A DNA stretch of 28,579 nucleotides, taken from the NCBI GenBank assembly GCA_021160845.1, contig JAGHBT010000225.1:1-28579 (forward strand), written 5' to 3'. The stretch is from a bacterium (GTDB lineage: Bacteria > Krumholzibacteriota > Krumholzibacteriia > Krumholzibacteriales > WJIX01). The notes beneath the pieces are model-generated. The model worked only from the letters and a program-made list of their open reading frames with translations, ran no database searches and was not told where the DNA came from. Position numbers and translations under genes: made by a program. Below are positions 1,735-28,579 of the stretch, in pieces. Each line of letters opens with the position of its first letter. Positions within the stretch are counted from its first letter, which is position 1.

Positions 1735-1750
1735 AATTCACCTCCTGATA

Positions 1751-1779: not shown

Positions 1780-1810
1780 AGGTTAAAAAAAGTAATACAT
1801 GCTTCGATTT

Positions 1811-2859: not shown

Positions 2860-2969
2860 TTACGGCTCCTTTCAATACCAGAAACAATTTAATATCCCAC
2901 ATTTTCTTTGAACTCCACCACATATTGTTTTTCCAACACTCCGGTAACACACCACATTTCCGCGGAAGA

Positions 2970-4232: not shown

Positions 4233-4446
4233 TAAAACTCCCTTCATTTCACACCGAGCAACCATTGTTCTAAAACGCGAACAAAAATAAACCATTCATG
4301 CTGTACAATATCTAACACAAATTTCACTCTATTTGAAGACGAATTATCGAGAGCCTCAAGGCAGAAACAAAATTATTAAATGGGAGTTACTGTGTTCTAA
4401 CAACCGGATATGGGTAAAAAATGAAACAGATAGTCAAATACCTGGG

Positions 4447-5394: not shown

Positions 5395-5415
5395 AACAAC
5401 CTCCAGAAATAAAGC

Positions 5416-5448
5416 TCCCTGGCAAAAGGAATTAACTCTCGCCAGGGA
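5416..5448 (-). terminator. Probable intrinsic terminator/attenuator between the aminotransferase and arcC
   Basis: Perfect inverted repeat TCCCTGGC/GCCAGGGA, extendable by 5 pairs (including G-U) on the minus-strand RNA and followed by GCTTTATTT. Confidence 0.6.
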
Positions 5449-5472
5449 ATCAAACTTACTTTTTTAATAATA

Positions 5473-6624: not shown

Positions 6625-6753
6625 AAATACTCCAATCACTAAAAAATTACTTATCAACAAGTTAGCCGTTATAAGGAACAATTGAGCGGAGAGGCAACAC
6701 ACTCTACTCCAACAACTATGCCACACCGCCAAGGCACCGGCGTTACACTCAGT

Positions 6754-10206: not shown

Positions 10207-11015
10207 CGTATCCACAACACACCAATCCCGGCGGAAAGCGTACTTCCGAGTACCGGATGATGATTCCAGGAAAAACCAAAATACCAATTGTTTCTTTGAT
10301 AAACCAACCCGGATGATATTTCATTCGTGTTAAACCCATAACCGGACAAGAGGCAAAAATCACTACTCAAATTAGCCTCTGCCCCCATTAGAAACTCATT
10401 TTCATTCCTTCGCAACACAGAGTAATTAACAAGCAGTGACAGAGGAAAATCGTTAATCGAAAACATAAATTTTGCCACCTCGTCAGCTGAAAAATCGGGG
10501 TCGTATATAATTCCTTCAAACCCGGATGTAAATATCTTTTTCCAATCGAAACTTATTGAAGTTTTTACCGTTCCGTCTGTTTCATACTCAAAACCTGTCA
10601 CTTTCCTACCACCAAATGCCGGTGATATCCCTAGCGAAAGCCCGCTTCGGGCAATTTCTCTAATCCACTGAATTTTAACGCGATCTTCTCTATATAGATC
10701 ATAATGAAGGAGAGACCATGACACCCATAGATTATTATTGCTATTACGAAATCCTATTTTTAGAAAGGAATCGGTGATGCCGTTTATAGAATACGGGTTG
10801 GAAACAGAGGAAATCAGCCCGAAATAATTTCCATTCGCTCTGATCCAATTCAGATTTGGAACAATATCAGGGTGTACTGCCCCATTTCTTGCCTTTATCC
10901 ATACCGGTATCCCTGCAATCACCGCCGGGGATATACCAATTATAAAAACAAATAACAGAACAAATAATATTACCCGCCGGCCTTCACGGCCAAACACCTT
11001 TTTTCTCTTCTGCAT
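10203..11015 (-). CDS. Hypothetical exported protein, probable small outer-membrane beta-barrel
   Basis: Hydrophobic signal segment (VILFVLLFVFIIGISPAVIA), amphipathic strands and an aromatic C-terminal strand (AGIGVLWIR). The start codon is uncertain. Confidence 0.65.
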   Translation of the reverse strand: MQKRKKVFGREGRRVILFVLLFVFIIGISPAVIAGIPVWIKARNGAVHPDIVPNLNWIRANGNYFGLISSVSNPYSINGITDSFLKIGFRNSNNNLWVSWSLLHYDLYREDRVKIQWIREIARSGLSLGISPAFGGRKVTGFEYETDGTVKTSISFDWKKIFTSGFEGIIYDPDFSADEVAKFMFSINDFPLSLLVNYSVLRRNENEFLMGAEANLSSDFCLLSGYGFNTNEISSGLVYQRNNWYFGFSWNHHPVLGSTLSAGIGVLWIR

Positions 11016-12736: not shown

Positions 12737-12762
12737 CACATCCACCTCCCCGGCTTAGAGTT

Positions 12763-12855: not shown

Positions 12856-15030
12856 CTATACAAGTCCCCATATCTTTCTTAAAATCCACTCTGTGGTAAG
12901 AAAAAGGATAATTACAAAAAAGAATACTATATTTGAGCGAAAAGAAGTTGTACGAGTCATGTGGACTTCATTAACATGCGGGTTTAATCGATTAATAATC
13001 CCTTCTGCTTCATTTGGTACAAAGAACTGCCCCCCGGACTTTTTAGATAATCGCTTAAGGAAATCGCCATCCATAGATCTATGAATATATTCAACCGAGA
13101 GAGAATCAACGCTGAATTCAGTTTCTCCCTCAAACCCCTTGCCGGAATCCAGAATCTCCCTTGCCGCAACCCTGTAACGACCAGGACCGAGAGAGGGAAG
13201 CTTAACCCTAAAAACGCCCCTTTCCGGAATTTTCGGATCAAAGATAAAGGTCCGAATAAGCTCGTTCCCTTCCTTTTCCATTTTATAGAGCCTTCCCTTT
13301 ATGGCCTTAGGTAACCTCCTTTTTCCCAAATGCACTGATATCTGAGGCTCTTCCCCAGCATTGTACCTGTTCCTGGATGACACAACTTCGAGTGGTTGTC
13401 TGTCAGCACCGGAAGCAAAATATTGAATCAATGACGAGAAAAATGTATTGTAAATTTTCTCTCCCTCTATGCCCGCAAGTCTCCATCTCCAGAGTGGCAT
13501 CCCAAGCACTACACCCGACACCCCTTCTCCGCTGCGTTCAATAGCGACCAGGGGTTTTAAGTCACCTTTGTTTTCATCTAAATAAAGGGGTACGGTAGTC
13601 CCCATAGAAGGATTAAATCCTTCAAGATATACCGGCAGAGGAGGTAATTCATAAATCCCCCCGCATTCAGATAGCATTACGGAAACCGTGTTGTTACCCT
13701 CAGGGGAAAGTCTTAAATAGTACTCCCCCACGGACGCCCTAACCAAAGACAGCTTCTTTACCGGAATAATATCCTCGAGGAGCTTGAAAGATGAATCGTA
13801 TATTAATGGGCTACTTTCATCGGCAAGAAAAACAACTCCTCCACCTCCATGCACATAATCGATTAAAATATCCGCATTCTCGGCTATAGAGAAAGTCCTT
13901 TCGGCATCAGAAATAATAACCAGGTCATACCGTTTTAACCCATCGCTTCCTGATGGAAATTGCCACTTCAGATATTTTGGAATCTTTATATAACCCTGCC
14001 CCGGATTCCATGTAACAAAATCAAAATCAAACCTCTTCATTTCACCCGCGAGGTCACGCAAAAACTTCATATTCCAATCTGCATGCTCGTCTATATACAG
14101 AATATGCCTCACCTCTTCAAGTATCCCGAGGTTAAATCCCTCCGATCTTCTACCCGATAACTTCATTTCTTCACATTCCAGTATAATTTTCATCCTGTGA
14201 TCACTTGCTTTACCGGCAAGATAATCAAAAACGGCTCTATATTCACCTTCGCCATTTTCCGCTACGACCAATACACTATCTATTAACTCATCATCTTCAA
14301 ACAACCTTGCTTTTATGTGAACATTTTTTCTGAGTCCTTTAGCGGCTACGATAGTTTCAATCTTTGTTTTCATCCCGGAATAAACCCTTCTCTCATAGAT
14401 GATGTCTTCAATCGATAGATATCCACCCTTCAAAGTATTCCCAAATCCAATTGAATATACCGGAAGATTTATCCCTTCAATTAATGTTCTGTTGTTTGTC
14501 TGGATTCCGTCTGTAAGAAGTATTATTCCCGCCGGCTTAGAATACCTGTATCGATTGGCAACTGCTTCTATACTGCCTGTTATGTCAGTTCCCTCACCCT
14601 CTGCTTCAGGGATGCTATCGGCTTGCACCGGGTTTTTCCAGAGATTTTTTGAAAAAGGAATAATTTCTATATCAGCAGAATGTTTATCCCCGATATTTAT
14701 AAGTAACCCGTCGATAACAGAACGAGCAAATGCAATACGGCTTTCTCCTGAACAATCTTTTATGCTCATACTTTTTGAGACATCCACAAGTATTGGAATT
14801 ATTGGGGTTTTTTTCTCAGTGGCCAAATAGGTCAAAAGAGGATTTACAAAAAACAGAACAAGCGACAGAAAAGCCAGAGACCTCAGCCCCGCAAGAACAA
14901 ACCTCTTTGGACCGGAGATAGATGGAAAACATTTTCTATATATAAAAAGAGAAAAGAGTATAAGTACTGTGGCAGCGGCAAACCCCCATAGACCAATTTC
15001 AAGTAGTATATTTCCAACAGCTTCAAACAC
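12856..15030 (-). CDS. Membrane-anchored vWA-domain protein with an Ig-like region and a class I GATase-like region
   Basis: Two N-terminal TM helices; MIDAS residues LVDVSKSMS, GTDITGS and ILLTDG; central YDLVIISD...YVHGGGGVVF region; C-terminal TM (FFFVIILFLTTEWILRK). GTG 15030 follows the SD AGGAG (the track start is 15054). Confidence 0.85.
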   Translation of the reverse strand: MFEAVGNILLEIGLWGFAAATVLILFSLFIYRKCFPSISGPKRFVLAGLRSLAFLSLVLFFVNPLLTYLATEKKTPIIPILVDVSKSMSIKDCSGESRIAFARSVIDGLLINIGDKHSADIEIIPFSKNLWKNPVQADSIPEAEGEGTDITGSIEAVANRYRYSKPAGIILLTDGIQTNNRTLIEGINLPVYSIGFGNTLKGGYLSIEDIIYERRVYSGMKTKIETIVAAKGLRKNVHIKARLFEDDELIDSVLVVAENGEGEYRAVFDYLAGKASDHRMKIILECEEMKLSGRRSEGFNLGILEEVRHILYIDEHADWNMKFLRDLAGEMKRFDFDFVTWNPGQGYIKIPKYLKWQFPSGSDGLKRYDLVIISDAERTFSIAENADILIDYVHGGGGVVFLADESSPLIYDSSFKLLEDIIPVKKLSLVRASVGEYYLRLSPEGNNTVSVMLSECGGIYELPPLPVYLEGFNPSMGTTVPLYLDENKGDLKPLVAIERSGEGVSGVVLGMPLWRWRLAGIEGEKIYNTFFSSLIQYFASGADRQPLEVVSSRNRYNAGEEPQISVHLGKRRLPKAIKGRLYKMEKEGNELIRTFIFDPKIPERGVFRVKLPSLGPGRYRVAAREILDSGKGFEGETEFSVDSLSVEYIHRSMDGDFLKRLSKKSGGQFFVPNEAEGIINRLNPHVNEVHMTRTTSFRSNIVFFFVIILFLTTEWILRKIWGLV

Positions 15031-15060
15031 AGCTTCTCCTCTATCTGCAAACACCAGGAA

Positions 15061-15307: not shown

Positions 15308-15709
15308 TTAAATGATTTTTGTGCTCCCTGTTGTTTCTTTTTCTTTCTCAGGGATATTGCCAAAACTGGCGACTGCTTCTTCTACATTATCGTAGCTTTC
15401 AAGTATCGTTTGAAATTCAAGAAGCTCAAACACTTCATACACATCACCTACCATAGACGCAAGTTTAAGGTCTCCGCCATTCTCCCGGATTTTCTTAATC
15501 TCGCTAATAAAAATTCCCCACCCAGCAGAACTGACATAATCTACATCAGCTAAATCAATAATAATATCAAACCTCTGTTCTCGAAGAAGTTGTTTAATAC
15601 CCTTCTCCAATTCACTGGAGGTAGTTGTATCAATAAACCCACTCACATGTACAATAGAAATAGCTGAATTCCCTTCAGGTTTACTAAAAGAAATGCTAAT
15701 ATCATTCAT
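15308..15709 (-). CDS. STAS-domain anti-sigma-factor antagonist (RsbV/SpoIIAA-like)
   Basis: Motifs VHVSGFIDTTT, IIIDLADVDYVSSAGWGIF, GGDLKLASM and VYEVFELLEF. Confidence 0.92.
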   Translation of the reverse strand: MNDISISFSKPEGNSAISIVHVSGFIDTTTSSELEKGIKQLLREQRFDIIIDLADVDYVSSAGWGIFISEIKKIRENGGDLKLASMVGDVYEVFELLEFQTILESYDNVEEAVASFGNIPEKEKETTGSTKII

Positions 15710-15736: not shown

Positions 15737-16105
15737 CTAAGGCAAATTATTACTCTCTTGCGAATCGAAAGCAATCAGAGCATCCGTAGCCGATTCGTAA
15801 GGAGTTAACAGCGTGTCAAATTCTAAAAGCTCAAAAACGTCACGAACTTCGGGATTCATACCGGCAAGCTTTATATCACCTTTTTTTGCCCGTAAGCCTT
15901 TGATCTCAGAAACAAAAATCCCCCAACCCGCAGAACTAATGTAATCCACTTCCGTTAAATCAATTATCAACTTTACCTTGTACGCAACAATTAAATCATT
16001 AATCTTTGATTCAAGATAATAAGAAGTCGCGGAGTCCACTAACCCAGTCAGTTTCAATATTACCGTGTCTTCAACAAATTCTTCTTCAATATGCAACTCA
16101 TCCAT
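15737..16105 (-). CDS. STAS-domain anti-sigma-factor antagonist (RsbV/SpoIIAA-like)
   Basis: Motifs LKLTGLVDSAT, LIIDLTEVDYISSAGWGIF, KGDIKLAGMNPEV and VFELLEF. Confidence 0.92.
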   Translation of the reverse strand: MDELHIEEEFVEDTVILKLTGLVDSATSYYLESKINDLIVAYKVKLIIDLTEVDYISSAGWGIFVSEIKGLRAKKGDIKLAGMNPEVRDVFELLEFDTLLTPYESATDALIAFDSQESNNLP

Positions 16106-16151: not shown

Positions 16152-17273
16152 TCAGTCCAACAACGCCTTTAATAATATAAAAACACCATGCCTTTCATTC
16201 TCGGTTAATCTTATATTCTTTTTGGCTTTTTCATAATCTTTATTAATCATAACCGCTTTTTCGAAAGCCTTCCCGGCTTTATCCATAAACATCTTACACT
16301 TCGCCGTATAAAGTATTCCAAGCGAGTTGTAAGCATCCGCAAAATTCGGATTTTGATCAACTATCTTTTTCATAGCATCCAGATACTTATCAATTTCAAC
16401 TGGATCAAGATTATTATCACTTTGAAGTATAATCAAATAAAGTTCACTAATCACTTTATCTATATAGATTCTATCTGAAGCCTCTTCGACAGAATCCAAC
16501 AACTTCAAAACCTCATCATATTTACCTTTGCTGAAAAGTTCCTTTACTTCATCTGTTTTATCCCCATTTAAAGAAGGATTCAGTGTAGCAACTTTATCAA
16601 GATACTCGTCAAAATCACCTTCCAGTTCATGCGATAACTCATAATCCTGCTTTATTATTGAATTCATTATGTAAGTTCGGACTATATTCAAATATGGCGC
16701 GCCATAATAGTAATTTAGCTCAATTGCGCGCTTAAAACTATCAACCGCGCGCCTGCACTCATTTCGCCTGTAGTATATCTTCCCCGCAAGATTGTGAAGA
16801 TCAGGATAATCGATCCTTATCTTTAGTCCTTCATTGACAGCTTTAAAAGCCTTAGAATATTCCCCAATTTTGTACCATGACTCGCTGACTATTTTATAGG
16901 GTTCCGCCCCCTTCTCACCCTTTTTTATCGCTGTCTCAGCCTCATCAACAGCTTCATGATAAAGGTTCCGAAGAAACAATGCATTCGCAATCTTAAGATG
17001 GAATGAGGATTTGTCGGAAGAACTGATCTTTTCCTTTACATCCAGAAGAAGAAGAAACTTGTCTCTATTTCGATTATGAATAACCTTTGCCAGTTCAATG
17101 GCTTCGTCCATTGATTTTTCTTCCTTCAGTTGATAAGTATCTGAATCAAAAGATATCCCCTTCTTAAAAAACACGGTTATCACAGACCGATCCCGTGGCA
17201 GAAAAGTGGTCTGTAGAAAATACTCCTCCCCACCCCTGTTTATTTCCTCTCTCAATTCAAAATTATCAGCCAA
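16152..17273 (-). CDS. Cytoplasmic tetratricopeptide-repeat protein with an uncharacterised N-terminal module
   Basis: TTG start after AAGGAG. TPR-like units include YPDLHNLAGKIYYRRNECRRAVDSFKRAIELN and FADAYNSLGILY. No signal peptide. Confidence 0.85.
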   Translation of the reverse strand: MADNFELREEINRGGEEYFLQTTFLPRDRSVITVFFKKGISFDSDTYQLKEEKSMDEAIELAKVIHNRNRDKFLLLLDVKEKISSSDKSSFHLKIANALFLRNLYHEAVDEAETAIKKGEKGAEPYKIVSESWYKIGEYSKAFKAVNEGLKIRIDYPDLHNLAGKIYYRRNECRRAVDSFKRAIELNYYYGAPYLNIVRTYIMNSIIKQDYELSHELEGDFDEYLDKVATLNPSLNGDKTDEVKELFSKGKYDEVLKLLDSVEEASDRIYIDKVISELYLIILQSDNNLDPVEIDKYLDAMKKIVDQNPNFADAYNSLGILYTAKCKMFMDKAGKAFEKAVMINKDYEKAKKNIRLTENERHGVFILLKALLD

Positions 17274-17353: not shown

Positions 17354-18088
17354 TTAAATATTTAATATCTCCTCCGTCAGACGATAATAATCAAAGGCTC
17401 CTCGAGAAAGTGGCGCGTGTTCATATATGGTTTCATTTGATCCGGGCGCTTCCCTCAAAGCGGTATTAACTCTAATCACAGTATTGAACACGCCTTCAGG
17501 AAACCGGGTTCTAATATCTTCAAGAACAAGCTTTGATATATTTGTACGGGAGTCAAAAAAAGTTGGAAGAATGGTGAAATTAATTGTTTTTTTTGAAATA
17601 AGCCATTTTACCTCTTTTATCATTCCAATAGTCTGGCTTGCTCCAGCTTGAGACAGATAATCGAGTGAAAGAGGAATGACAATCTCATCAGAGAATGCGA
17701 GAATGTTGATATTTATCAAATTCAGCGAGGGAGGGCAATCGCATATTACATAATCAGAGCCCTTAAGATTTGAAAGGGCTTTCACCATTCTTTTTTCGCG
17801 ATCCCTTTCCTTTCCAAGAAGAAGTTCCACCTCCACAAGATCAGCCCCTCCCGAATCAATAAGAAAGAGATTGTCCCTAACCTGCAGAATATCTACATCA
17901 CCTGTCCTGAGTAAACTGGAAAGTCCTCTTTTCCCCTCATTTCCAAAAGTGATTGCAGCATTTCTCTGTGGATCACAATCTATAAGCAAAACCTTTTTAC
18001 CGCTCAACGCGAGTCCATGAGCAAGATTTACGGCAGTAGTCGTTTTGCCCGTACCACCCTTCATTGTCATTATCGCGTATTTTTTCAT
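17354..18088 (-). CDS. ParA/Soj-family ATPase (orphan, no adjacent parB)
   Basis: Deviant Walker A KGGTGKTTT, IDCDPQRN, Walker B ICDCPPSL, FDSRTN and LREAP. ATGA overlap with the upstream stop codon. Confidence 0.92.
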   Translation of the reverse strand: MKKYAIMTMKGGTGKTTTAVNLAHGLALSGKKVLLIDCDPQRNAAITFGNEGKRGLSSLLRTGDVDILQVRDNLFLIDSGGADLVEVELLLGKERDREKRMVKALSNLKGSDYVICDCPPSLNLININILAFSDEIVIPLSLDYLSQAGASQTIGMIKEVKWLISKKTINFTILPTFFDSRTNISKLVLEDIRTRFPEGVFNTVIRVNTALREAPGSNETIYEHAPLSRGAFDYYRLTEEILNI

Positions 18089-21000
18089 TTTTTAGTTCCT
18101 TTGTTACCTTTTCTGTTAATATTGGAAAGCTTCTCCCCATAGGCACCCCACCCAAGATTCTTGATTTTCCTGTCTTTCTCTTCACGTTTGTCTACCTTGT
18201 CTCTTTCAATATCCAGACCGGAATAGGAGGAAACTCCTTGATGGTCTTCCGCCAATTCCCCAGAGTCACTACTATCCTCTTCCTTAGCGCTAACCTGATT
18301 AATATAGTCCTCTTCCGGAATTCGGGACGAATACAGAATTTCTCTTTCTGCTTTTCCGTCATATTTTTCAATTTTTTCCTCTACTTTTTTCCCTTGCCTA
18401 CCTTTGTTACGTTTTACTTTCTTAGACAATTTCTCTTCTCTATTTATGCCTTCCTTAACATCAGAAGACGTGGATTTTATCCAAGATGAATTTATCATAT
18501 CATCAATAGCCTTTTCCCTATCAAGAAAATGATTAATAAGCGGTTCAAATCCAAGATCAATAAAAATTTTGTATATTGCCGAGTTCATTCCGATAAGCGC
18601 CAATTTCGTTCCGGAACTATTCAACTGCTGAACATATTTGACAATATTCCCCCAGCCACTGCTGTTTATATAAACTACATCCGACAAATCAACCAGCAAG
18701 AAGGCTGGATTGTCAGACAATGACCGCTCCATATTGATCTCAAATTCATCATTTGTGGACGCGTCAATCGCACCGCTTACTTTCAGAACTACACCAACAT
18801 TCCCCGAAATTTTAATTCTCTCAAGATCAACTCCAAAAGTATAATTCTCAACCTCGTTCCGTTTTCTTCCCGTAACTACAACGGCAGGTTTAGATCCGAG
18901 GTTATTTTTGTCATGGCTGGATTCAGCAATTTCAACATTAAAATCCTCCACAGCCTCAGCTAATATATTAAACGAATGCATAAGATCATCGAATTCAAGC
19001 AGCTTGAATATCCTGTTAACATCCGGATCCATACCGAAGATTTTCAAATCACCGCCTTTCTTTCTCATCCCGTCAATCCTTGAGGCAAAAACGCCCCAAC
19101 CGGCACTGCTTACATATTCTACGCCGGACATGTCGGCAATAATCTTACTTGTACCTTTTCCCAATATACGATCAAAGGCTTCACGGAGTTCTAAAGAGCT
19201 TACCGTGTCGATTATACCTTGAAGCTCCAGAATAGTTATCTCTCCATTGTCCCCAACCAAACCCGCCTTTATTCGTAAAGGAGTCATATCAGATTCATCT
19301 ATGCTTAGTATTTCTGGAATTAATTTCTTTTCAGATTTCTTCTTTTTCCGACTTTTCCGTTTTACTTTAAGATGTTTCTGTCTTTCATGGAATGGAAGCG
19401 ATAGAAATCTAATCGCTTCTTCTTTCAACCTAAACTGCATAAGGATATCCATAAATCCCAGCAACTCAAATATGTCATAAACCTCGGGAGACATTCCCAC
19501 CAAAACAACATCCCCCTCTTTCTCCCTTAGATTCTTCACTCTACCCACAAATACCCCCCATCCACCACTGCTTATGTACAAAACATCATTTAAATCAACT
19601 ATAATATTCTTGGTTCCCTCCTCGTACAAATCCTCCATAACACTTTCCAATTCGCCGGTAGAGGAAGAATCAAGATGACCGGAGACTTTTAAAACGGTTA
19701 TATCCTCATTGTATTTTTCATCTTCAATCCTTACAGGGGAATCCGACCCATATCTGAATTCCTCAGCATCTTTCTCATATTCCCATTCTTTACTGAATTT
19801 CTCGTCACCGCGTTCCTCGATCACAGATTCTGAAACTCTTTCAAGACTACCCCCTGAACCCACGGACATTTCCCCTACAGTGTCTCTTTGAGGAGTTAAG
19901 ATCGAGCCTTTTTTCTGTTCTACAACTTCTTCCTCTCCAATAACAATTTCCCTTTTCACCTTCTTTATATCTATTGTTCCTTTTGTGCTATCTTCAATCT
20001 CCTGCTCCAATTTTATTCCATTTCTTCTCAAATAATCCAATCTCTTCTCATATGTATTCAGCCTCATTCTCTTTAGTTCGTTATAGACAAGCGAAGAAGT
20101 ATTTAGATTAGCTTTACCTCTTCCCAAATTAAGCCTATCAGCAATCCTCTTAGCTCCAAAGCGGGGGTTTTCCTTAATTACTTCCAGCAATTTCGTTCTT
20201 TGCTCATTACTCAAACGTCTTATAGCATGTTCTTCTCTTAGATTCTTATTCTTTAAACCGCGGTCCCCCATCAATTCCAACCGTTTTTTGTACCTGTAAT
20301 ATGTTGATGGAGATACCTTCATCTTACTGCAGGCATCAGTCACTGAGATTCCTTCCACACTGACCAAGTCAAGCAACCTTCTTCTAATGCCGAGCAATAC
20401 TTCATCCGCCATATACTTCTCTTTAAATGCGACTACCGTAATATCATCATTTTGCGGATATTGCCCCGTGAATTTATCAATCTCATTGCTCAAGATATCT
20501 ATAAATTCCTGAGGTGATTTGCTGCCACTTTTTTTCATCAATTTAAGAAGTCTTTTCTCGCCGAATTGCTCCCTCTTTTCATTCATAGCCTCAGTTACGC
20601 CATCTGTATAAATCAGGAGCATATCATTTTTTTTGAGTTTAATCTTTTCAACATCTATCGATTTCTCAAACAATTTATCATCCGGGAGATTTATTCCAAC
20701 CGGAAATCCTCGTGGATTCAAGTAGAATGTTTCATTCGTTTCTGCTCTGTAAAGAATCATGGGATTATGCCCCGCACTGGCGTAACTAATAACCCTGTTT
20801 CTTGAATCAAGAATCACATAGAATATTGTGACAAACATCCCTTTTTTCATATCTTGGGTAACAAACTCATTCATTTTGGCCATCACGTCAGCAGCCGAAT
20901 GGTTACCCCTGGCTTCCATTCGTAACGCCGTCCTAATCATCGTCATCACAAGCGATCCGGGGACACCTTTACCCGACACATCAGCTACAACAACTCCCAG

Positions 21001-22419
21001 TGTATCGTCATCAACATTCACAAAATCGTAATAATCCCCGCCAACCTCTTTAGCTGCTTTATAGTAACTTGCGATATCATATCCGCCTATTTCAGGTACA
21101 TTTCTCGGGAGAAGGGAATGCTGTATCTCTTGAGCAACCTGCATCTCTTTTTGCATTCTCTCTTGTTCTACCACACTCTCCTGAGCTACACGGAATTTTG
21201 CTGTAATTTCATTAAAGGCCTTCGCGATCGCGCCAATTTCTTTAGGCCCTTTTATATCGAGTTCATCCTCAAGCGAACCTTCACCGATAGCTATCACCCC
21301 GTCAGTGAGGGTTTGTATCGGTTTGATAAAAATGGAGATGAGCAAATAGACAAGGCCTATTCCCGACATAAACATACCAAACAATATCACTATAGTTTTA
21401 AAACGCTCGTCTTGTACTAACATTTCAATTTCAGCGCTGGATACTCCCATGGCCAACTGCCCCATAATAATCCTTTCACCGGGATTCTTCCCTGAAAGTA
21501 CAATAGGCAAATGAAACTCCTTAATATTCTCGTCATCCCTATTCAGTGCGATCCATTTTCCATCTGAAGATAAATCTCTGACCCGAGAAGGAGCCTCGTA
21601 CAGTTGTCCAAATTCATCGGCAATACTCGAAGAAACTACCATTCCTTTCATGTTGACCACTCGTATATACTTTATCTCTGGGTGAATTTTCATCCCATCA
21701 TGAATAAACTCATTTAACTTCCTGTATTCAGGGTGGTATAAATCATCTAAAACAAGGGCATTTTCACTCCTAAATTCGAGCGTCTGAGCAAAACTTCTCA
21801 TTTGCAGCCAAGCCTTTTGCCGGGCATTTTCGATATCCCGGGTCTGATTAATAAATTGAATAAGCCCAATAATCGCGATAATTCCAAAAAGACCTGTAGA
21901 AGCCCTCAATAGAAATTTAAATCTAAGTGTTTGAGTCCATTTTGTTTTAATTGAATGAACTAGAGGTCTTTTTCCGGAAAGGGACAATTTGGAACTCTTG
22001 GCCATGATTAGATGATTTCCGTCACTGGAAGATTCATATTTAATATCATCCATGAGACGATTCATTAAATATATTCCAAGACCACCCCTCTTCCCCATTT
22101 CAACATATTCCTCCAAATCCGGATCTTTAACTCCCGACCAGTTAAAAGGGTTCCCCTTGTCACGGAGATGAATTTCAACATTTCCCGACCAAACCCGCAT
22201 ATCCACTGTTATCTTACCTGATTTACCGCTATAGGCATGCTTTATGATATTTGTACAAGCCTCATCAACAGCCAGCTTTGTGTTATTTGTCTCTCGTTTG
22301 TTAAATCCCGCCTGTGCACAAACATTGGATACATAATCTCTTATCTCACCCAGATTATTCTCGTCTGCATGAATTTCAAGATGAAAATCTTTTTCATTTT
22401 TAAGGAAGGGGTTTTTCAA
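18085..22419 (-). CDS. Multidomain partner-switching sensor: RsbW-like HATPase - TM - extracytoplasmic sensor - TM - HAMP - SpoIIE/PP2C phosphatase - transposase-like HTH region - 3x STAS - charged tail
   Basis: HATPase motifs AVDEACTNIIKHAY, RDKG and GGLGIYLM. Two hydrophobic helices. HAMP KPIQTL...EIGAIAKAFN. PP2C motifs GGDYYDF, ADVSGKG, YTDGVTE and DDIT. HTH SVTDACSKMKVSPSTYYRY. Three STAS domains carrying S(S/A/G)GWG. TTG start directly abuts the upstream stop. Confidence 0.9.
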   Translation of the reverse strand: MKNPFLKNEKDFHLEIHADENNLGEIRDYVSNVCAQAGFNKRETNNTKLAVDEACTNIIKHAYSGKSGKITVDMRVWSGNVEIHLRDKGNPFNWSGVKDPDLEEYVEMGKRGGLGIYLMNRLMDDIKYESSSDGNHLIMAKSSKLSLSGKRPLVHSIKTKWTQTLRFKFLLRASTGLFGIIAIIGLIQFINQTRDIENARQKAWLQMRSFAQTLEFRSENALVLDDLYHPEYRKLNEFIHDGMKIHPEIKYIRVVNMKGMVVSSSIADEFGQLYEAPSRVRDLSSDGKWIALNRDDENIKEFHLPIVLSGKNPGERIIMGQLAMGVSSAEIEMLVQDERFKTIVILFGMFMSGIGLVYLLISIFIKPIQTLTDGVIAIGEGSLEDELDIKGPKEIGAIAKAFNEITAKFRVAQESVVEQERMQKEMQVAQEIQHSLLPRNVPEIGGYDIASYYKAAKEVGGDYYDFVNVDDDTLGVVVADVSGKGVPGSLVMTMIRTALRMEARGNHSAADVMAKMNEFVTQDMKKGMFVTIFYVILDSRNRVISYASAGHNPMILYRAETNETFYLNPRGFPVGINLPDDKLFEKSIDVEKIKLKKNDMLLIYTDGVTEAMNEKREQFGEKRLLKLMKKSGSKSPQEFIDILSNEIDKFTGQYPQNDDITVVAFKEKYMADEVLLGIRRRLLDLVSVEGISVTDACSKMKVSPSTYYRYKKRLELMGDRGLKNKNLREEHAIRRLSNEQRTKLLEVIKENPRFGAKRIADRLNLGRGKANLNTSSLVYNELKRMRLNTYEKRLDYLRRNGIKLEQEIEDSTKGTIDIKKVKREIVIGEEEVVEQKKGSILTPQRDTVGEMSVGSGGSLERVSESVIEERGDEKFSKEWEYEKDAEEFRYGSDSPVRIEDEKYNEDITVLKVSGHLDSSSTGELESVMEDLYEEGTKNIIVDLNDVLYISSGGWGVFVGRVKNLREKEGDVVLVGMSPEVYDIFELLGFMDILMQFRLKEEAIRFLSLPFHERQKHLKVKRKSRKKKKSEKKLIPEILSIDESDMTPLRIKAGLVGDNGEITILELQGIIDTVSSLELREAFDRILGKGTSKIIADMSGVEYVSSAGWGVFASRIDGMRKKGGDLKIFGMDPDVNRIFKLLEFDDLMHSFNILAEAVEDFNVEIAESSHDKNNLGSKPAVVVTGRKRNEVENYTFGVDLERIKISGNVGVVLKVSGAIDASTNDEFEINMERSLSDNPAFLLVDLSDVVYINSSGWGNIVKYVQQLNSSGTKLALIGMNSAIYKIFIDLGFEPLINHFLDREKAIDDMINSSWIKSTSSDVKEGINREEKLSKKVKRNKGRQGKKVEEKIEKYDGKAEREILYSSRIPEEDYINQVSAKEEDSSDSGELAEDHQGVSSYSGLDIERDKVDKREEKDRKIKNLGWGAYGEKLSNINRKGNKGTKK

Positions 22420-24312
22420 TTAATCCTTCTCCCCAGAATTAATTATTTCAAGCCTTTTGCCAGCTTCTTCAATATTCTTCTTTATACTTTCATTATCAGG
22501 ATCAATCTTTAGAATTTTATTCCATACTTCTATTGCCGACTTATACTTTCTTTGTGTAAAATGCTTCATTCCGTCTATGTACAGCTTCCGGATTTGTTCC
22601 TTTTCTTCATTCTTGAGAGGAGTTATCCGCCGCCGCGCTCTATCGAGCAACTTTAATGCCTCCTTATGATCAGGCTGAATCTTCAACACCCTTCCCAGCT
22701 GCTCTTCCGCTTTGGAATAATCGCCTGTGCTGAAATTATTCAACGCCTTTTCAAAGAGATCTATAGTTGTCAATTTTATTCTTGCCGAATCAAACTTTAC
22801 ACTCATAGCCCGCAACCGATCCTTTAACCTCTGCGCACCCTCTTCGGCTTCTTTATGCTTCGGATTAAGCGCTTTTATCATATTCCATTCATCCAGTGCC
22901 GCGGCTAATTTACCTGCCTCTTCAAAATCGATTGCTTTCTTCCTGTGGCGGTCAATCTGCTTAGAAAGTTTTTCCTCAATTTTCTTTATATATCCCTTTG
23001 CATTCTCATTATCAGGATCAATTTCAAGTAGAGAATTCCATTCTCCCCTTGATAGGAGATATTCATTGTTTCCGTAATATTTTAATCCCAGTTTAAAATG
23101 ACGCTTTATAAGAACCTGTTTTTCAACCGACTTAATCTCTTGCTGCTGTTTCTTGATTATCTCATCTTCCAAAACTGAAATCAGCCTCGAAGCCTCAACA
23201 TCCGACGGATCGTATTCGAGCGCAATCTTAAACTCATCATACGCCTTTTCAAGTTCTCCATTTTTTCTGAGAGATTTCGCTTTTTGCAGATGACTTTTGA
23301 GTCTGTCGGAAAGTACCTGCTTGAGATATCCTTCTTCTTCCTCCCTTCGACGCGCCGCTAGTGCTTCTCTCTTTCTCTCAATTGACTCGCCAAGATTAAC
23401 CGAAATTGAAAACGGATGAGAAGATCCGGCTTCATCACGGCTGAAATACCCGTAATCAGCAGTATATTCCTGCCATGAAAACCCTATTCCGGCGGTTATT
23501 TGCTCAGAGTCAAATCCAACCCGGAAACTGATTATATTTTTTAAATCATATTCGATACCAAACCTTAGATCATTATCGGCCCTCTCGGGCATATCAACTT
23601 GCGCGGAAGCAATCAGCGCCGACCCATTCTGAAATTCGTAAGAATACCCCACCCCAAACATCATGGTTCTATCAACCCTTTCACTAATAGATACAAGTTT
23701 TGTTTCAGCCCCTACTATATCCTGAATATTGCACCCCAGAACAAATCCTTTCAGATAAGAAAGCCTGTATAAAACTCCAACATCCATCCCCGTTCCCGTA
23801 TCTGAATAATCGCCTATACTCTGATTCAATACCTTAATTGATGTTCCGAGAGTGAACTTTCCTAACAGCTCAAATGGAATATCAAAGGCATAGGCCAATA
23901 ACCCCTGGCTTTCACGATAGGAAATTTCCCCCAGTTCATTACTAAATTCGTCAAACGCTCTTATCCCGCCGGTACCTGTTGTCATTATCCCGATTCCAAA
24001 GGCGCCGGATAAAAGGGTTGGATAAACCGCTCCAACAAAATCGTAATTCGCCCCACTGAAATCCGAGAATAGTTGAATGTGATTCACCATTATTCCCGTA
24101 TATTTATTTAATTTTAAACCGGCAGGATTGTAATAAATAACCGAAGGGTCATCACCAATGGCAGAAAATGCTCCACCCAGAGAAATAGCGCGCGAACCTG
24201 CTCCAAGAGTAAAAACCGATCTGGTTCCACCAACACCCACCTCGGCAAATACATCTTTACCCGTGGCAAGGAGTATTATTAAAATCAGAGTTGTTAATCT
24301 TTTCTTTCTCAT
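22420..24312 (-). CDS. PorV/PorQ-like (FadL-fold, UPF0164-like) outer-membrane barrel fused to C-terminal TPR repeats
   Basis: Signal peptide; family N-terminal motif GSRAISLGGAFSAIGDDPSVIYYNPAGL; about 300 aa of strands ending near SVNLG; then a helical region with several TPR-like units (ALEYDP, LLEIDP, VLKIQP, ILKIDP). Confidence 0.85.
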   Translation of the reverse strand: MRKKRLTTLILIILLATGKDVFAEVGVGGTRSVFTLGAGSRAISLGGAFSAIGDDPSVIYYNPAGLKLNKYTGIMVNHIQLFSDFSGANYDFVGAVYPTLLSGAFGIGIMTTGTGGIRAFDEFSNELGEISYRESQGLLAYAFDIPFELLGKFTLGTSIKVLNQSIGDYSDTGTGMDVGVLYRLSYLKGFVLGCNIQDIVGAETKLVSISERVDRTMMFGVGYSYEFQNGSALIASAQVDMPERADNDLRFGIEYDLKNIISFRVGFDSEQITAGIGFSWQEYTADYGYFSRDEAGSSHPFSISVNLGESIERKREALAARRREEEEGYLKQVLSDRLKSHLQKAKSLRKNGELEKAYDEFKIALEYDPSDVEASRLISVLEDEIIKKQQQEIKSVEKQVLIKRHFKLGLKYYGNNEYLLSRGEWNSLLEIDPDNENAKGYIKKIEEKLSKQIDRHRKKAIDFEEAGKLAAALDEWNMIKALNPKHKEAEEGAQRLKDRLRAMSVKFDSARIKLTTIDLFEKALNNFSTGDYSKAEEQLGRVLKIQPDHKEALKLLDRARRRITPLKNEEKEQIRKLYIDGMKHFTQRKYKSAIEVWNKILKIDPDNESIKKNIEEAGKRLEIINSGEKD

Positions 24313-24318
24313 ATCCTT

Positions 24319-27300
24319 CTACTTCGCAATTGCAATCTTGAAAATTGCGGAATTAGGTCCTGCCGTTATCTTACAGATATATATTCCGTTCCTGACAAGT
24401 TCACCACGGCCATTTCTTCCATCCCACAATACTATACACTCTTCTCCTCCGGGGCTTCCTGTAGCACCCTCACTTCCGGCGGCAATATCCTTTGACCAAA
24501 CTAAAATACCCGTGTAATCATAAATTTTTATATTCACATTTACATCTTCCACAAGAAAATATGCAATTCTCGTATTCTCACTTCCCGCTCTAAAGGGATT
24601 TGGATAATTATGTGCGTATTCGGAAAAATTGCCGCTCATAATTGTAAAGGGAGTATTATAAAAATGCCCCGCTATTTCACTTCCTCCTCCTCTCCAGACT
24701 ACGCTAACCGGAGCGCTTTGCCCTCCGATAGAAAATTTAATGTCATTACTACGAACAAGTTCAACTCTCATGCCGCCGATTGGAACGCTAAGGGCAATAT
24801 CAACTTCCACACTCGCTGTAGCGCTATCAGTTGAATTGATTGTGAACCCATGATCCACAATAATCGGTATGGGATTTATACCATCGGCTTCTGACGAATA
24901 CCTTCTTCCATCTTCTGTGACAAAACTTACACTGTCCACAAACTGTGAAGGATTTTCAATATCCATACCGTTCACATCACGGATAGTTACATAAAGTGTA
25001 TCAAGGCCTACGGTATATGCGGAATTGTTACTGAAAGAAATTTTTAGCATCGGCACATCCCGGGTTCCCTGCGGTACTACATGCGGAGGAATGGCAATTG
25101 TGTCACTTTCGGAAATATTATTCATAGCAACAGTGCCCGCCTCTGTCTTTACCGGTATTAATATCTCTGCCGTATCTATTTCGGCCGTCTTGTTTGTATT
25201 AGAATCATTAGCGTAAGGCTCTGCAAAATAAATGCGAATATTACCCGGAGGTGACTTTGTGGAAGGCGCTTTCAAATTCCAGATAATGGGTTCTCCAATA
25301 CGGAATGCCTTGCTGCTGTCTCCATTAATAAACGAATATCCCGGTGGAAGGGCTATCTTTAATCTTGCTCCTGTTGTATCAATCACTGCCCTTCCTTTAT
25401 TTTCGATCTCAGCTTCAACGGTAAAGGGGAGGTTAACAGACAGTTCCCCTTCAAGAGCCTGCTGAGGCCCTGATATCGCCGCAGATAAATTAATCAAAGC
25501 GGCAGATTCGGTTTCAACTTCTAAAGAGTAATTACAACCGCTGAAAGCGATACCTGAATTGACATCTACTCCGCCTGTAGTCAGCTGTATCTGCCGTTTT
25601 TGCAAATCTTCATCCGGGGGCGCTGTCAGGCTCCAAACAACATATGTTTCCGTTCCTTCGCCACTTTCAACATCACGTTTTAAATCTCCATCGACTGAAT
25701 ATCCGGAAGGAAGAGAAAGCTCCAGCCACACTCCATCAGAATTGGCGGAGGGTGTAACGGCTGCTCTGAGTGAAAAGTTCTGATTTGTCGATAAGAGTCT
25801 ATCCACAGCACCTGGAGGCGAATCAACCGATAAATTACAATTCCGAACAACCCCCTTCTCTTCTGTTAGGATAGTAATGCTATCAAGCGGCTCGGCACAA
25901 AAAGCCGGAGCGCCGATGTTAATATCAACGGGAGAAGTAGTGATTCCAACCCTCAGAATATCAGAGGTAGCAACAGCCGATGGAGAAAGCAGTGTCCACG
26001 CAACATTCTCATTAGGAATAAAGATCCTAGTCAATGGCTCATGCACGGGGTAAACAGATGAAAAACCATCAGGCAATGTTATAGTTATTCTTCCCGAATT
26101 ATCAACTAGCGCTTCCCCCCTGTTGGATACACTAGCTGTAACAGTGAAGTTCTGTTCTGTTGAAAGGGTATCATCAACCGCTCCCGGAGGAGATATTATC
26201 CCCACTTTACAAACAAGTTCCGCCGCACTCTGTATTTGAATATTTTCAACCGATTCTACAGCCTGTATCGGGTAAATTTCTTCACCTGTACTAACTGATA
26301 CGGCTTTTGTTATGGAAGCGGAAAGAATTTCAACACCCTTATTGGAAGACGCCGTAACATCAAAAACAAAAATACCCTGCGTCCCGGTGTCGAGATAGGG
26401 ACAACTGTCAGACAAACTGATTACCGAACTCCCGTCAGTTACAAGAGATACATCAATACTATCCAGCTCATCGCCTCCTGTATTTTCAATCCGTACGGTA
26501 ATATTAAACTCCTGAGTAATATTCACAATAGAGGTGTTTGGGATTAAAAGGTTATTCGGAGCATCACTTTCTACCGAAATAATCCTCAGTCCGGCGGGTT
26601 CCCTAACAATTACCGCAGAATCACCACTCGCCTGCGTCTGTGCCGAATCAGGATTATTTTCATCCAGCCAGTCCAGCAACATACTTACCGAAACAGTTCC
26701 TGTATCAACTCCTGTAGATGATATCTGATATTCCAGTGAATCAATACCGCCACCCATCAGGGTAAAACCGGAAGCGCCTGATGCAAATTCACTCGGGGCA
26801 ATCACAAGATAATCTGTAAGTTGATTTAGGTTTTTAAAGAAATTGATATCCTCACTTCCTGGCTGATTCAGTGTTACAGGAGCCTCCCCACTATTTCTAA
26901 CAACAGCAGTCAGAAACCAGTCAACCGTTTGTCCGGCCGTTAGATATATCTGCGATGGAGCAACCCTTGTTATATCAAGTATACCGTGATTTTGTATCTC
27001 CGCTGTTGCCGTGCTGTCAACGGCCTCTGAAAATTTAACGATGTTACTCTGTCCGGAATTTGTATCAACGGCGGATTCCAGCACCACAGAGAAATCTTCT
27101 GTGGCAGCGGAGGAAGAAGCCCTGACATAAAATGTATCTTCAGCAACTTCCCCTTCATCGAGAAGAATTAAATAATGAATTGGTTTTTCAATAAAGGAAG
27201 CTCCCTCGCCTGACAAAGAAACCGCGATACTATCGGCCGCTGCGCCCCCGCTGTTTTCAACTTGAACTACAATGGGAAAATACTGCTCACAATTCACAAA

Positions 27301-28579
27301 AGGAGAACGAGGAGCTGCATTCTCAAGTGAAAGAACTGACAATATAGCCGGTGTTTGTATCTCAATAATTCCATAACCTGTATTTTCAATACCGGAATCA
27401 AAACTCAAAAATTGCAATCTGTTATCCTCAAATACACCAACACGGCTGTATATCTCCAAATTTTCAGTATTTGTTACCAAGGGAGATGGAGTGACGCTGA
27501 ATACAAGGTGCCCGGATTCTCCTCCGGCCAACACAATTCCGCCGCCGGAAAATCCGGAGGGCAGAGTGGGTACTGAGAGATTATAATTGCTGTATATATA
27601 AGTGCTATCCATAGAAAGTGTCACATCTGCTTCACCCTGATTTTCAACTAGAAGATCGACTTTCCAGACCGAGGTTTGTCCTGAAGTAATAGCATCTTGG
27701 CTAATGGTAGTCCCTGTAACAGCAACAACGGCGGGGTCCTGAATAAAAATGTACCCTCCCCCTCCATTAAATGTGTCATCGGTTACTATATTACCACTGT
27801 TCACGTCACTCGCGGTTACGTAAGCATTAATTGCAGCTATACCCGTGGATGAACCGGTTGATGTAATTCTGAACAAAAGGGTGTCTACCTGATTCCCCGC
27901 TAGAATAGTTGTTCCGGACCTCTGAAGGCTCTCAGGGTTTACAATGGTGTATTCTCCCGTACAATCACCAGAACCTGGGATATTAAAAGTCAGGTATGTA
28001 TTCAGATCTGAAAGATCCATATCTACTGACGCTTCGCCAGTGTTGTGGACGATCATCCTTACAAGCCAGGCGGGCTGTAAAGACGCCGTAACACTCTGGG
28101 GACTTACGATACTTGTAATACTTAAACGGGGAGCCACTTCAATTTCAATACTATCGGCAACAGAAGAAAGGTTTGTTTCAAAATCATTCCCATTCTCGAT
28201 CCCTTCAAGATGGATCAGAAACATGTAGGATCCAGCCGCAATAGAAGTGTCGACCGTGCTACTCTCAAACCTAAGGGTAATACTCTCTCCCCCTGAAATC
28301 ATATTTTGTGAAGTGGACGAGAGATACGCCTTAAAACTATCTTCATCTGCGTCAGCGAAAGATATGTACGTATTTGAAGGATAAAGTTCCAAAGTGGAAT
28401 GTTCATTATCTGAATTCAATATCCCCAATTCCACGGAGATTTCGGTTCCCCCGCTCGCCGAAAGAGGAGATAGGCTGGACAACACATATTCCGGAATTGG
28501 CTGCAGTTCAAACTTAACTGAATCAGTAGTCGTGATTGTTCCGGGGTAAGTATAAACTGTGTTACCACTATTAATCTCA
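24319..28579 (-). CDS. Giant secreted/surface protein with repeated Ig-like (CARDB-like) modules and a FlgD/T9SS type-A-like C-terminal domain (5' end outside the window)
   Basis: The frame stays open from 28485 to the window edge (EINSGNTVYTYPG...), so the track start is not the true start. Ser/Thr/Asp-rich repeated V.N.GEA/GG modules. C-terminal HNYPNPF...IKIYDYTG...WDGRNGRGELVRNGIYICKI. Confidence 0.88.
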   Translation of the reverse strand, partial: EINSGNTVYTYPGTITTTDSVKFELQPIPEYVLSSLSPLSASGGTEISVELGILNSDNEHSTLELYPSNTYISFADADEDSFKAYLSSTSQNMISGGESITLRFESSTVDTSIAAGSYMFLIHLEGIENGNDFETNLSSVADSIEIEVAPRLSITSIVSPQSVTASLQPAWLVRMIVHNTGEASVDMDLSDLNTYLTFNIPGSGDCTGEYTIVNPESLQRSGTTILAGNQVDTLLFRITSTGSSTGIAAINAYVTASDVNSGNIVTDDTFNGGGGYIFIQDPAVVAVTGTTISQDAITSGQTSVWKVDLLVENQGEADVTLSMDSTYIYSNYNLSVPTLPSGFSGGGIVLAGGESGHLVFSVTPSPLVTNTENLEIYSRVGVFEDNRLQFLSFDSGIENTGYGIIEIQTPAILSVLSLENAAPRSPFVNCEQYFPIVVQVENSGGAAADSIAVSLSGEGASFIEKPIHYLILLDEGEVAEDTFYVRASSSAATEDFSVVLESAVDTNSGQSNIVKFSEAVDSTATAEIQNHGILDITRVAPSQIYLTAGQTVDWFLTAVVRNSGEAPVTLNQPGSEDINFFKNLNQLTDYLVIAPSEFASGASGFTLMGGGIDSLEYQISSTGVDTGTVSVSMLLDWLDENNPDSAQTQASGDSAVIVREPAGLRIISVESDAPNNLLIPNTSIVNITQEFNITVRIENTGGDELDSIDVSLVTDGSSVISLSDSCPYLDTGTQGIFVFDVTASSNKGVEILSASITKAVSVSTGEEIYPIQAVESVENIQIQSAAELVCKVGIISPPGAVDDTLSTEQNFTVTASVSNRGEALVDNSGRITITLPDGFSSVYPVHEPLTRIFIPNENVAWTLLSPSAVATSDILRVGITTSPVDINIGAPAFCAEPLDSITILTEEKGVVRNCNLSVDSPPGAVDRLLSTNQNFSLRAAVTPSANSDGVWLELSLPSGYSVDGDLKRDVESGEGTETYVVWSLTAPPDEDLQKRQIQLTTGGVDVNSGIAFSGCNYSLEVETESAALINLSAAISGPQQALEGELSVNLPFTVEAEIENKGRAVIDTTGARLKIALPPGYSFINGDSSKAFRIGEPIIWNLKAPSTKSPPGNIRIYFAEPYANDSNTNKTAEIDTAEILIPVKTEAGTVAMNNISESDTIAIPPHVVPQGTRDVPMLKISFSNNSAYTVGLDTLYVTIRDVNGMDIENPSQFVDSVSFVTEDGRRYSSEADGINPIPIIVDHGFTINSTDSATASVEVDIALSVPIGGMRVELVRSNDIKFSIGGQSAPVSVVWRGGGSEIAGHFYNTPFTIMSGNFSEYAHNYPNPFRAGSENTRIAYFLVEDVNVNIKIYDYTGILVWSKDIAAGSEGATGSPGGEECIVLWDGRNGRGELVRNGIYICKITAGPNSAIFKIAIAK

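Follow-up and report, generated by a model that had tools for sequence, protein, structure and literature searches.

A conserved membrane protein of an uncultured Krumholzibacteriota-type bacterium combines partner-switching domains with a transposase-type helix-turn-helix

Partner switching is usually taught as a sigma-control circuit made of separate proteins. What could such a switch govern when its kinase, its phosphatase, a sensor and three substrate domains are carried by one polypeptide and no sigma factor is encoded beside it? This question is raised by an open reading frame (ORF) at positions 18085..22419 of the reverse strand in a stretch of 28,579 nucleotides (contig JAGHBT010000225.1 of GenBank assembly GCA_021160845.1), which in its full length is the window analyzed here and which comes from an uncultured Krumholzibacteriota-type bacterium. 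The ORF is uninterrupted, uses a TTG start immediately after the stop of the upstream gene and encodes a conserved membrane protein of 1444 amino acids, hereafter the fusion. With a probability of about 0.58, we read this protein as an inner-membrane partner-switching hub that works independently of a dedicated sigma factor.

Architecture and integrity of the fusion

From its N- to its C-terminus, the fusion consists of an RsbW-type kinase, a transmembrane (TM) helix, a single Cache domain, a second TM helix, a HAMP domain, a PP2C phosphatase, a bipartite IS481-like helix-turn-helix (HTH), three STAS domains and a disordered tail, an identity and an architecture of which we are highly confident. 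The inventory of kinase, sensor, phosphatase, HTH and three STAS domains had already been drawn up from the letters of the sequence (the original prediction), and it was borne out by Pfam, by matches in the PDB and by the alignment of homologues. The features of the fusion are as follows, (-) denoting the reverse strand.

21997..22371 (-): RsbW/SpoIIAB-type GHKL serine kinase domain, residues 17-141 (Pfam HATPase_c_2, E 7.6e-29), cytoplasmic, N-terminal to TM helix 1
21850..21918 (-): TM helix 1, approximately residues 168-190 (Kyte-Doolittle peak centred at 177-182; long helix in the AlphaFold 2 (AF2) model)
21406..21837 (-): periplasmic single Cache/PDC sensor, approximately residues 195-338 (weak Pfam sCache_3_2 match at 198-334, E 1.8e-4; AF2 fold)
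21337..21399 (-): TM helix 2, approximately residues 341-361 (Kyte-Doolittle peak centred at 348-363; AF2 helix)
21208..21342 (-): HAMP domain, residues 360-404 (Pfam, E 1.6e-9), highly conserved, with a conserved helical linker leading into the phosphatase
20422..21012 (-): PP2C/SpoIIE-family serine phosphatase, residues 470-666 (Pfam SpoIIE, E 2e-50)
20020..20388 (-): bipartite transposase-type HTH, residues 678-800 (Pfam HTH_23/28/32; NCBIfam IS481 N-terminus), no DDE domain
19423..19710 (-): STAS 1, residues 904-999, acceptor Ser951 (Pfam STAS; SpoIIAA alignment, E 1.2e-11)
18952..19248 (-): STAS 2, residues 1058-1156, acceptor Ser1105 (Pfam STAS)
18508..18813 (-): STAS 3, residues 1203-1304, acceptor Ser1253 (Pfam STAS), the least conserved of the three
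18127..18174 (-): conserved tail motif D..I...GW..YG..L, residues 1416-1431 (GWxxYGxxL), predicted ParA docking site

Motif invariance was tested in an alignment of 116 full-length homologues sharing 43-69% identity. The kinase domain, which matches RsbW in the PDB at the level of sequence (6m36_A, E 1e-15), has invariant residues in its N box (E53, N57 and H61), its G1 box (D87 and G89) and its G2 box (G112, G113 and G115). Invariant as well are the acidic residues D462, D465, D480, D606, D658 and D659 of the phosphatase, whose sequence match in the PDB is Rv1364c (3ke6, E 4.9e-15). The enzymes of a partner switch can hence be recognized by sequence, namely a GHKL kinase with N, G1 and G2 boxes and a PP2C with metal-binding aspartates, and at motif level both are intact, which speaks against the inactive enzymes that had been named as a reason for caution.

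Regarding the substrates, the Pfam STAS profile covers three stretches of the fusion (E 5e-55), with domain limits taken from genome-level profile matches, and the sequence matches in the PDB also include SpoIIAA and RsbV. The acceptor column was anchored on SpoIIAA, at the position of Ser58, which is a serine in chain 1th8_B and an alanine in the mutant chain 1tid_B. In the same 116 homologues, S951, S1105 and S1253 are all invariant. Two stand-alone STAS proteins, also announced by the original prediction, are indeed encoded downstream of the fusion.

15737..16105 (-): stand-alone STAS A, 122 amino acids (Pfam STAS, E 7e-19), acceptor serine kept
15308..15709 (-): stand-alone STAS B, 133 amino acids (Pfam STAS, E 2e-18), acceptor serine kept

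All five STAS domains, three in cis and two in trans, thus have a serine in the acceptor column, and they share a signature S-x-G-W-G. According to the original prediction, kinase and phosphatase compete with each other for these substrates, tethered as well as free. This proposal fits the invariant catalytic residues, the invariant acceptor serines and the five paralogous STAS domains and, reasoning by homology, we regard it as quite probable that the two enzymes act on these domains.

The fusion had also been described as membrane-tethered, and two hydrophobic segments, centred at about residues 179 and 354, together with an AF2 model of residues 160-410, confirm this description. In the model, built with 56 homologues (predicted local distance difference test, pLDDT, 80.7), a TM helix leads into a PDC/Cache fold, followed by a second TM helix and the HAMP domain. 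When searched with Foldseek, this model retrieved WalK (E 2e-10), YycG, DctB, CitA, DcuS and the periplasmic domain of chlamydial RsbU (6mab), with E-values from 2e-10 to 1e-3. Moreover, the NCBIfam SiaA profile aligns with residues 341-666 (E 1.8e-22), with a score far below the family cut-off. From the topology TM-Cache-TM-HAMP it follows that the kinase, PP2C, HTH and STAS domains are cytoplasmic and the Cache domain periplasmic.

Could such an assemblage be degenerate or artefactual, either as a misassembled join or as a protein whose enzyme domain or HTH is a decaying remnant, for example of the insertion of an insertion sequence (IS)? The HTH does resemble the N-termini of IS481 and IS630 transposases, and one genome (G079) appeared to carry the gene as two distant halves. 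However, more than 120 full-length proteins from independent assemblies, with the same length and domain set, are encoded by the same uninterrupted ORF, and misassembly, for which the original prediction had asked to be checked, is refuted. All catalytic residues are invariant and the HTH, with 35 invariant columns, is kept across four lineages without a DDE domain. In G079, natural gene fission into an 809-residue kinase-PP2C ORF and a distant 913-residue ORF with the three STAS domains was considered and rejected as an assembly artefact: both halves abut scaffold gaps of 100 N. This 4.3-Mb assembly, presented as a single contig, has these gaps at L006:8751-8850 and L007:6750-6849, with the halves of the fusion about 870 kb apart, and it looks like a scaffolding error. 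An artefactual or decaying fusion is therefore very improbable.

Where the homologues are named, databases call them 'anti-sigma factor antagonist', and they come from metagenome-assembled genomes (MAGs) of Krumholzibacteriota or Latescibacteria. Whether the architecture had already been characterized was another point to be checked, and no paper was found on it, on a partner switch tied to type IX secretion or on the biology of this locus in Krumholzibacteriota.

The ancestral core, the helix-turn-helix and the ParA-type ATPase

Is the fusion the unit that evolution has preserved? The phylum was sampled with 201 genomes; almost every one from families f1, f2, f3, f7 and f9 has a match to the fusion, with ORFs that are mostly full length and shorter ones in fragmented assemblies, and the fusion is mostly missing in family f6. 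Family f8 has a reduced form of about 840 residues (kinase-Cache-HAMP-PP2C-HTH), followed by one STAS gene and no ParA gene. Beyond this phylum, MAGs of Zixibacteria encode a core of 980-1054 residues with a tail, followed by ParA and then by a STAS protein; those of FCPU426 encode a core of about 805 residues and then a STAS protein; and Calditrichota-type MAGs encode a protein of 1234 residues with a C-terminally fused TPR domain, again followed by a STAS protein. In the latter loci (L032:992-4696 and L034), TPR repeats replace the tail or STAS domains and echo the separate TPR protein of the Krumholzibacteriota cluster. Among the loci examined, the triple cis STAS, inserted between HTH and tail, is found only in Krumholzibacteriota-type loci.

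In the loci of family f8, Zixibacteria, FCPU426 and Calditrichota, the free STAS protein is an orthologue of STAS B (50-59% identity), which follows the core sensor in every lineage examined. Contrary to what had been stated, the switch is consequently not self-contained, the conserved unit across four lineages being kinase-Cache-HAMP-PP2C-HTH plus a trans STAS B orthologue. The ancient unit, as reconstructed from these sequences, is a dual enzyme with an HTH, accompanied by one free STAS gene.

The presence of an HTH in this core deserves attention. Pfam HTH_23, HTH_28 and HTH_32 match residues 678-766 with scores near the family thresholds, and positions 2-141 of the NCBIfam profile transpos_IS481 align with residues 679-823 (E 2.3e-15; 56.9 bits for a cut-off of 224), with weaker matches to the N-termini of IS630 and IS3 transposases. 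No rve/DDE catalytic family is found among the Pfam matches of the fusion, in which the HTH is followed by a disordered linker and then by the STAS domains. Many of the 35 invariant columns, counted over 56 homologues, are arginine or lysine, residues 668-800 have a net charge of +16, the STAS domains are acidic, and the AF2 model (pLDDT 80) has two helical subdomains with a flexible link between them. Judging from its sequence, the HTH is a domesticated and constrained transposase-derived module. Of the 'DNA-binding region' originally predicted, the HTH stands by sequence and by fold; that it binds DNA is a matter on which we see even chances.

If the HTH did bind DNA, it could itself be the main output. 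In this explanation, the fusion would be a membrane-anchored transcription factor of the CapS type, in which dimerization or masking brought about by the STAS domains, and governed by serine phosphorylation, would switch sequence-specific DNA binding and with it the transcription of the adhesin cluster, with ParA as an accessory. The fusion of the HTH behind PP2C in all four lineages, with or without ParA or cis STAS domains, is in its favor, as are the strongly basic HTH and the acidic STAS domains. Moreover, in the CapK/CapS system STAS phosphorylation dissociates the dimer and frees the attached winged HTH (wHTH) from DNA (PMC13373217). However, the ancestral HTH is located on the enzyme chain and not on the STAS chain, and a CapS-like intramolecular mechanism is not directly transferable. 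Furthermore, the HTH is of the transposase type and not of the MarR/ArsR type, and DNA would have to be drawn to the membrane, where two TM helices anchor the fusion. No operator was identified: reading by eye the 253-bp gap between STAS B and the downstream gene for a membrane protein of 732 residues, no obvious palindrome was seen. We consider this explanation unlikely and return to that of a hub independent of a dedicated sigma factor, for which the C-terminus of the fusion provides a further partner.

The last ~130 residues of the fusion are charged and poorly conserved, apart from a short motif that escaped the original prediction and that is the predicted dock for a ParA-type ATPase encoded directly downstream.

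17354..18088 (-): ParA/MinD-family ATPase, 244 amino acids (Pfam AAA_31, E 8e-38; CbiA)

Within this motif, W1424, Y1427 and G1428 are invariant in 56 tails. The motif was recognized in 114 of the 116 full-length homologues, 17-37 residues from the C-terminus, and the Zixibacteria proteins, which are devoid of STAS domains, end in a recognizably related motif (WEEYSRKL, MDEYERKL). The start of the ParA gene overlaps the stop of the fusion by 4 nt. Its product, whose closest solved relative is Soj from T. thermophilus (1wcv, E 1e-38), possesses a deviant Walker A motif KGGTGKT (it reads MKGGTGKTT) with the signature lysine K10 invariant in 61 orthologues, and its orthologues are 61-90% identical. 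A ParA gene directly follows each of the 17 complete ORFs with the motif and none of the 11 complete ORFs without it, which have no ParA gene within at least 1350 nt downstream; this is a count of loci, and with about two ParA-positive and three to four ParA-negative lineages it reflects few independent events. One MAG locus (L036) was left out of this count: the fusion appears interrupted there, with a longest frame of 342 residues at the match, probably by an assembly or sequencing error rather than as a pseudogene.

A complex of two ParA and two ATP with the last 60 residues of the fusion was predicted with custom alignments, alongside three controls. It obtained an interface score (ipSAE) of 0.74, for 0.00 in the best of the controls, and its runs agree in at least 76% of contacts with a partner pLDDT of at least 68. 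In the calibration of the prediction tool, 58 of 80 solved complexes and 2 of 110 mismatched pairs attained this score, counts that are only rough here, the complex having been predicted with custom alignments and ATP and the calibration without them. The contacts of lowest error involve, on the side of the tail, the invariant D1416, W1424, Y1427, G1428 and L1431 and, on the side of ParA, H24, G25, G30, I67, R71, E223, P226 and Y235, all invariant in 61 orthologues. On the basis of this model, it is reasonably likely that the tail motif docks ParA.

The output of the switch and its genomic setting

If not a sigma factor, what surrounds this protein? Three further genes of the window belong to its conserved setting.

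24319..28579 (-): giant surface protein, C-terminal part, with a type-A sorting domain of the type IX secretion system (T9SS) (CARDB; Por_Secre_tail at cut-off); the gene extends beyond the window
22420..24312 (-): PorV/PorQ-family outer-membrane barrel fused to TPR repeats, 630 amino acids, signal peptide (NCBIfam PorV_fam, 100.6 bits for a cut-off of 90; TPR Pfam)
16152..17273 (-): cytoplasmic TPR protein, 373 amino acids (TPR Pfam matches)

In three orthologous loci, at 44-69% identity, the order is identical: giant Big_1/Invasin-type protein, PorV/TPR protein, fusion, ParA, TPR protein, STAS and STAS. Orthologues of the giant surface protein have 3400-4550 residues and Big_1/Invasin_D3 repeats. 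The PorV-like/TPR gene lies directly upstream of the fusion or of its core in all loci examined; in Zixibacteria, FCPU426 and Calditrichota-type MAGs, it is accompanied there by the gene of a surface protein whose C-terminal domain is of the T9SS type, and in family f8 the core is likewise flanked by the adhesin gene. The 373-residue TPR protein, in which neither a signal peptide nor a TM segment was found, is kept in Krumholzibacteriota loci and has weaker relatives in the loci of Zixibacteria and FCPU426. In addition, 24 type-A T9SS sorting domains are present in the genome itself, among them that at 24331-24606, and it also encodes an SprA-like translocon.

As for sigma factors, no Sigma70_r2 match was obtained on the contig, and none was present in the ORFs of the window or within 10 kb in the three orthologous loci; among the conserved neighbors in the loci of the other three lineages, none was recognized. 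That the window encodes no sigma factor, as originally stated, is thus upheld by Pfam searches on its ORFs and by the contig-wide Sigma70_r2 search. Because no sigma factor is linked to the fusion and its conserved partners are ParA, TPR, PorV/TPR and adhesin proteins, we lean towards an output other than sigma release, probably STAS phosphorylation that affects partners other than sigma factors.

A canonical anti-sigma switch could nevertheless be hidden here, in which the kinase domain would sequester a sigma factor encoded elsewhere and a dephosphorylated cis or trans STAS domain would release it, as in the SigB, SigF and Rv1364c systems. The nearest matches of the kinase domain are RsbW and SpoIIAB, and the genome, a MAG that is 84.5% complete and in 339 contigs, contains eight Sigma70_r2 matches, several of them in open frames of 280-330 residues. 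Against this stands the absence of a sigma gene at the window or orthologous loci, with the conserved partners being those named above. Furthermore, characterized dual kinase/phosphatase proteins such as SypE act without sigma release (PMC10120452), and the same genome has a better candidate for a sigma switch on contig C115, a small STAS protein with an RsbW. This explanation thus appears distinctly unlikely. The pair on C115 (L009:4660-5360) is canonical-looking: at the contig end, a STAS protein of 114 residues (NSAGMG motif) is followed by an RsbW-like kinase, and whatever comes next, possibly a sigma factor, falls outside the assembly. Its signature is SAGMG, versus S-x-G-W-G at the fusion locus.

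The hub that we favor, without a dedicated sigma factor, would operate as follows. A periplasmic cue would be read by the Cache domain, maybe from the co-encoded PorV-like/TPR protein and T9SS adhesin. The signal would be transmitted through HAMP and the helical linker to set PP2C activity, the kinase re-phosphorylating the substrates; coiled-coil linkers are known to relay signals to PPM phosphatases from their sensor domains (PMC12143880). How far the five paralogous STAS domains are phosphorylated, the three on the fusion and the two encoded separately, would then depend on the balance of kinase and PP2C. Of the free ones, STAS B would likely be the mobile output, in parallel to SypA, SiaC and HsbA; it is the best candidate for this role, being the only STAS that all lineages examined have in common. 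The three cis STAS domains would compete locally as substrates, or serve as a buffer or scaffold. By way of its tail motif, the fusion would hold the co-translated ParA-type ATPase, which would tie the complex to a positioning cycle on the nucleoid or the membrane, and the HTH would probably bind DNA, serving as a tether or for local regulation.

Several points weigh against this reading. To the few independent events behind the co-occurrence of motif and ParA and to the rough calibration of the predicted complex is added that structures of ParA with peptides of its partner ParB have probably already been solved, and part of the ipSAE may therefore reflect a generic partner groove of ParA. Known ParA partners, besides, usually use N-terminal and not C-terminal peptides. 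A Foldseek search of the PDB with the HTH model gave nothing at or below E 0.001 (best E 0.14); the top non-significant rows, the bipartite DNA-binding domains of TnsB, Pax5/6, Mu, Tc3 and SETMAR, are only consistent with the IS481 match. The role given to the three cis STAS domains is pure inference, and they may serve otherwise. Finally, eight sigma-70-family genes lie elsewhere in the genome, and the RsbW-like kinase domain may sequester a sigma factor encoded there.

A bolder version, which we advance tentatively and hold to be rather unlikely as a whole, is that of a trans-envelope hub whose Cache domain senses the state of the T9SS adhesin and PorV-TPR protein and converts it into the phosphorylation of the five STAS domains, while ParB-like parts, i.e., the transposase HTH and a C-terminal peptide engaging a dedicated ParA, position the hub or something else. 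If true, this would be a partner switch with a spatial output (the ParA cycle) and a direct one (DNA binding) instead of sigma release.

Downstream of the second STAS gene, the conserved order continues with the 732-residue membrane protein, a lamin-tail-domain (LTD) protein and two further genes; for the last two, tblastn found no homologues in the most distant locus (L004). The 732-residue protein (12856-15054, (-)) has no Pfam match and is conserved downstream of STAS B in Krumholzibacteriota only; by language-model features, it resembles proteins of ~730 residues with GATase1_like or VWA domains from Planctomycetota and Bacteroidota. The genes at 8527-12745 (-), kept after the 732-residue gene in the closer orthologous loci, encode the LTD protein (591 residues, two LTD stretches), a 270-residue protein with an N-terminal hydrophobic segment and a 586-residue protein without family match. 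To the left of the cluster, positions 1075-6732 (-) carry housekeeping genes for a class I/II aminotransferase, a member of the amino-acid kinase family, purD (GARS), purE (AIR carboxylase), a Sua5/YciO/YrdC protein and an outer-membrane beta-barrel.

Members of the fusion family occur in at least four lineages that have been little studied (Krumholzibacteriota, Zixibacteria, FCPU426 and Calditrichota), and a giant secreted adhesin and a PorV-like protein are always encoded next to them. Kinase, phosphatase and membrane sensor are welded in them to a putative DNA-binding module, to which one lineage adds three substrate domains. The family offers a compact, testable case for the balance of an opposing kinase and phosphatase on tethered versus free substrates, for a STAS phospho-switch without a sigma factor and for the recruitment of a ParA-type ATPase by a signaling protein. 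As all domains can be expressed heterologously, these predictions are checkable even though the organisms are uncultured.

Comparison with known systems

How does this protein relate to the partner switches already described? In the SigB and SigF pathways of Bacillus, the parts are separate proteins, an organization that the original prediction had taken as the rule and that is not universal: Rv1364c (PAS-PP2C-kinase-STAS; PMC9138534) and SypE (kinase-REC-PP2C; PMC10120452) are each one chain. Like the fusion, Rv1364c, the SigF regulator of Mycobacterium tuberculosis (PMC9138534; 3ke6), carries sensor, PP2C, RsbW-type kinase and STAS on one polypeptide. Unlike the fusion, it is cytoplasmic, has its domains in the order PAS-PP2C-kinase-STAS with one STAS domain, acts on SigF and is devoid of HTH, ParA dock and membrane or Cache/HAMP part, the similarity to 3ke6 being at the level of domains only. 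The fusion, for its part, has an N-terminal kinase that precedes the membrane sensor, three STAS domains plus two in trans and no linked sigma factor.

A closer parallel in domain order is provided by SypE/SypA of Vibrio fischeri (PMC10120452; PMC8256260), with an N-terminal RsbW-like kinase, a central input and a C-terminal PP2C in SypE and a trans STAS substrate encoded nearby. There, the downstream partner is the STAS protein, and the output concerns the cell surface (biofilm) instead of the release of a sigma factor. However, the input of SypE is a cytoplasmic REC domain, of which no Pfam match was found in the fusion, where the input is TM-sCache-TM-HAMP; SypE also lacks an HTH, fused STAS domains and ParA.

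The RsbU/RsbW and SiaABC systems have their kinase on a protein of its own. Chlamydial RsbU (6mab) and SiaA of Pseudomonas aeruginosa share with the fusion the succession of periplasmic sensor, TM, HAMP and PP2C and a STAS-type or STAS-like substrate, and differ from it by having no HTH, fused STAS or ParA.

With CapK/CapS (Chambers et al., EMBO J 2026, PMC13373217), the fusion has in common an RsbW-like kinase paired with STAS and HTH domains on the same chains. In this system, phosphorylation of a conserved STAS serine directly controls DNA binding without a sigma factor (PMC13373217). CapK/CapS is nevertheless a cytoplasmic two-protein system (HTH-STAS-GHKL and STAS-wHTH) without phosphatase or membrane sensor, and whereas the MarR/ArsR-type wHTH of CapS directly follows its STAS domain, the HTH of the fusion is of the transposase type, precedes the STAS domains and is accompanied by PP2C. 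A bipartite HTH is located at the N-terminus of IS481 and IS630 transposases, from which the fusion differs by the absence of a DDE/rve domain.

As regards the tail, ParA/MinD ATPases bind terminal peptides of partner proteins (PMC11407121). As in the systems of ParB, MinE, McdB, PomX and ParP/TlpT (PMC11407121), the ATPase adjoins its partner and a short, terminal and disordered peptide is predicted to dock; unlike in these systems, the peptide is C-terminal and belongs to a membrane signaling enzyme, and GWxxYGxxL is not a ParB-type motif.

What is added here is the link between the tail and ParA and the reconstruction of the ancestral core, within a scheme that is itself known and whose mechanistic steps in this protein we infer. 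Compared with Rv1364c, SypE, CapK/CapS and RsbU/SiaA, the fusion is placed by its architecture in none of these families; fused partner-switch proteins being already known in Rv1364c and SypE, it is a variant of the partner-switching scheme.

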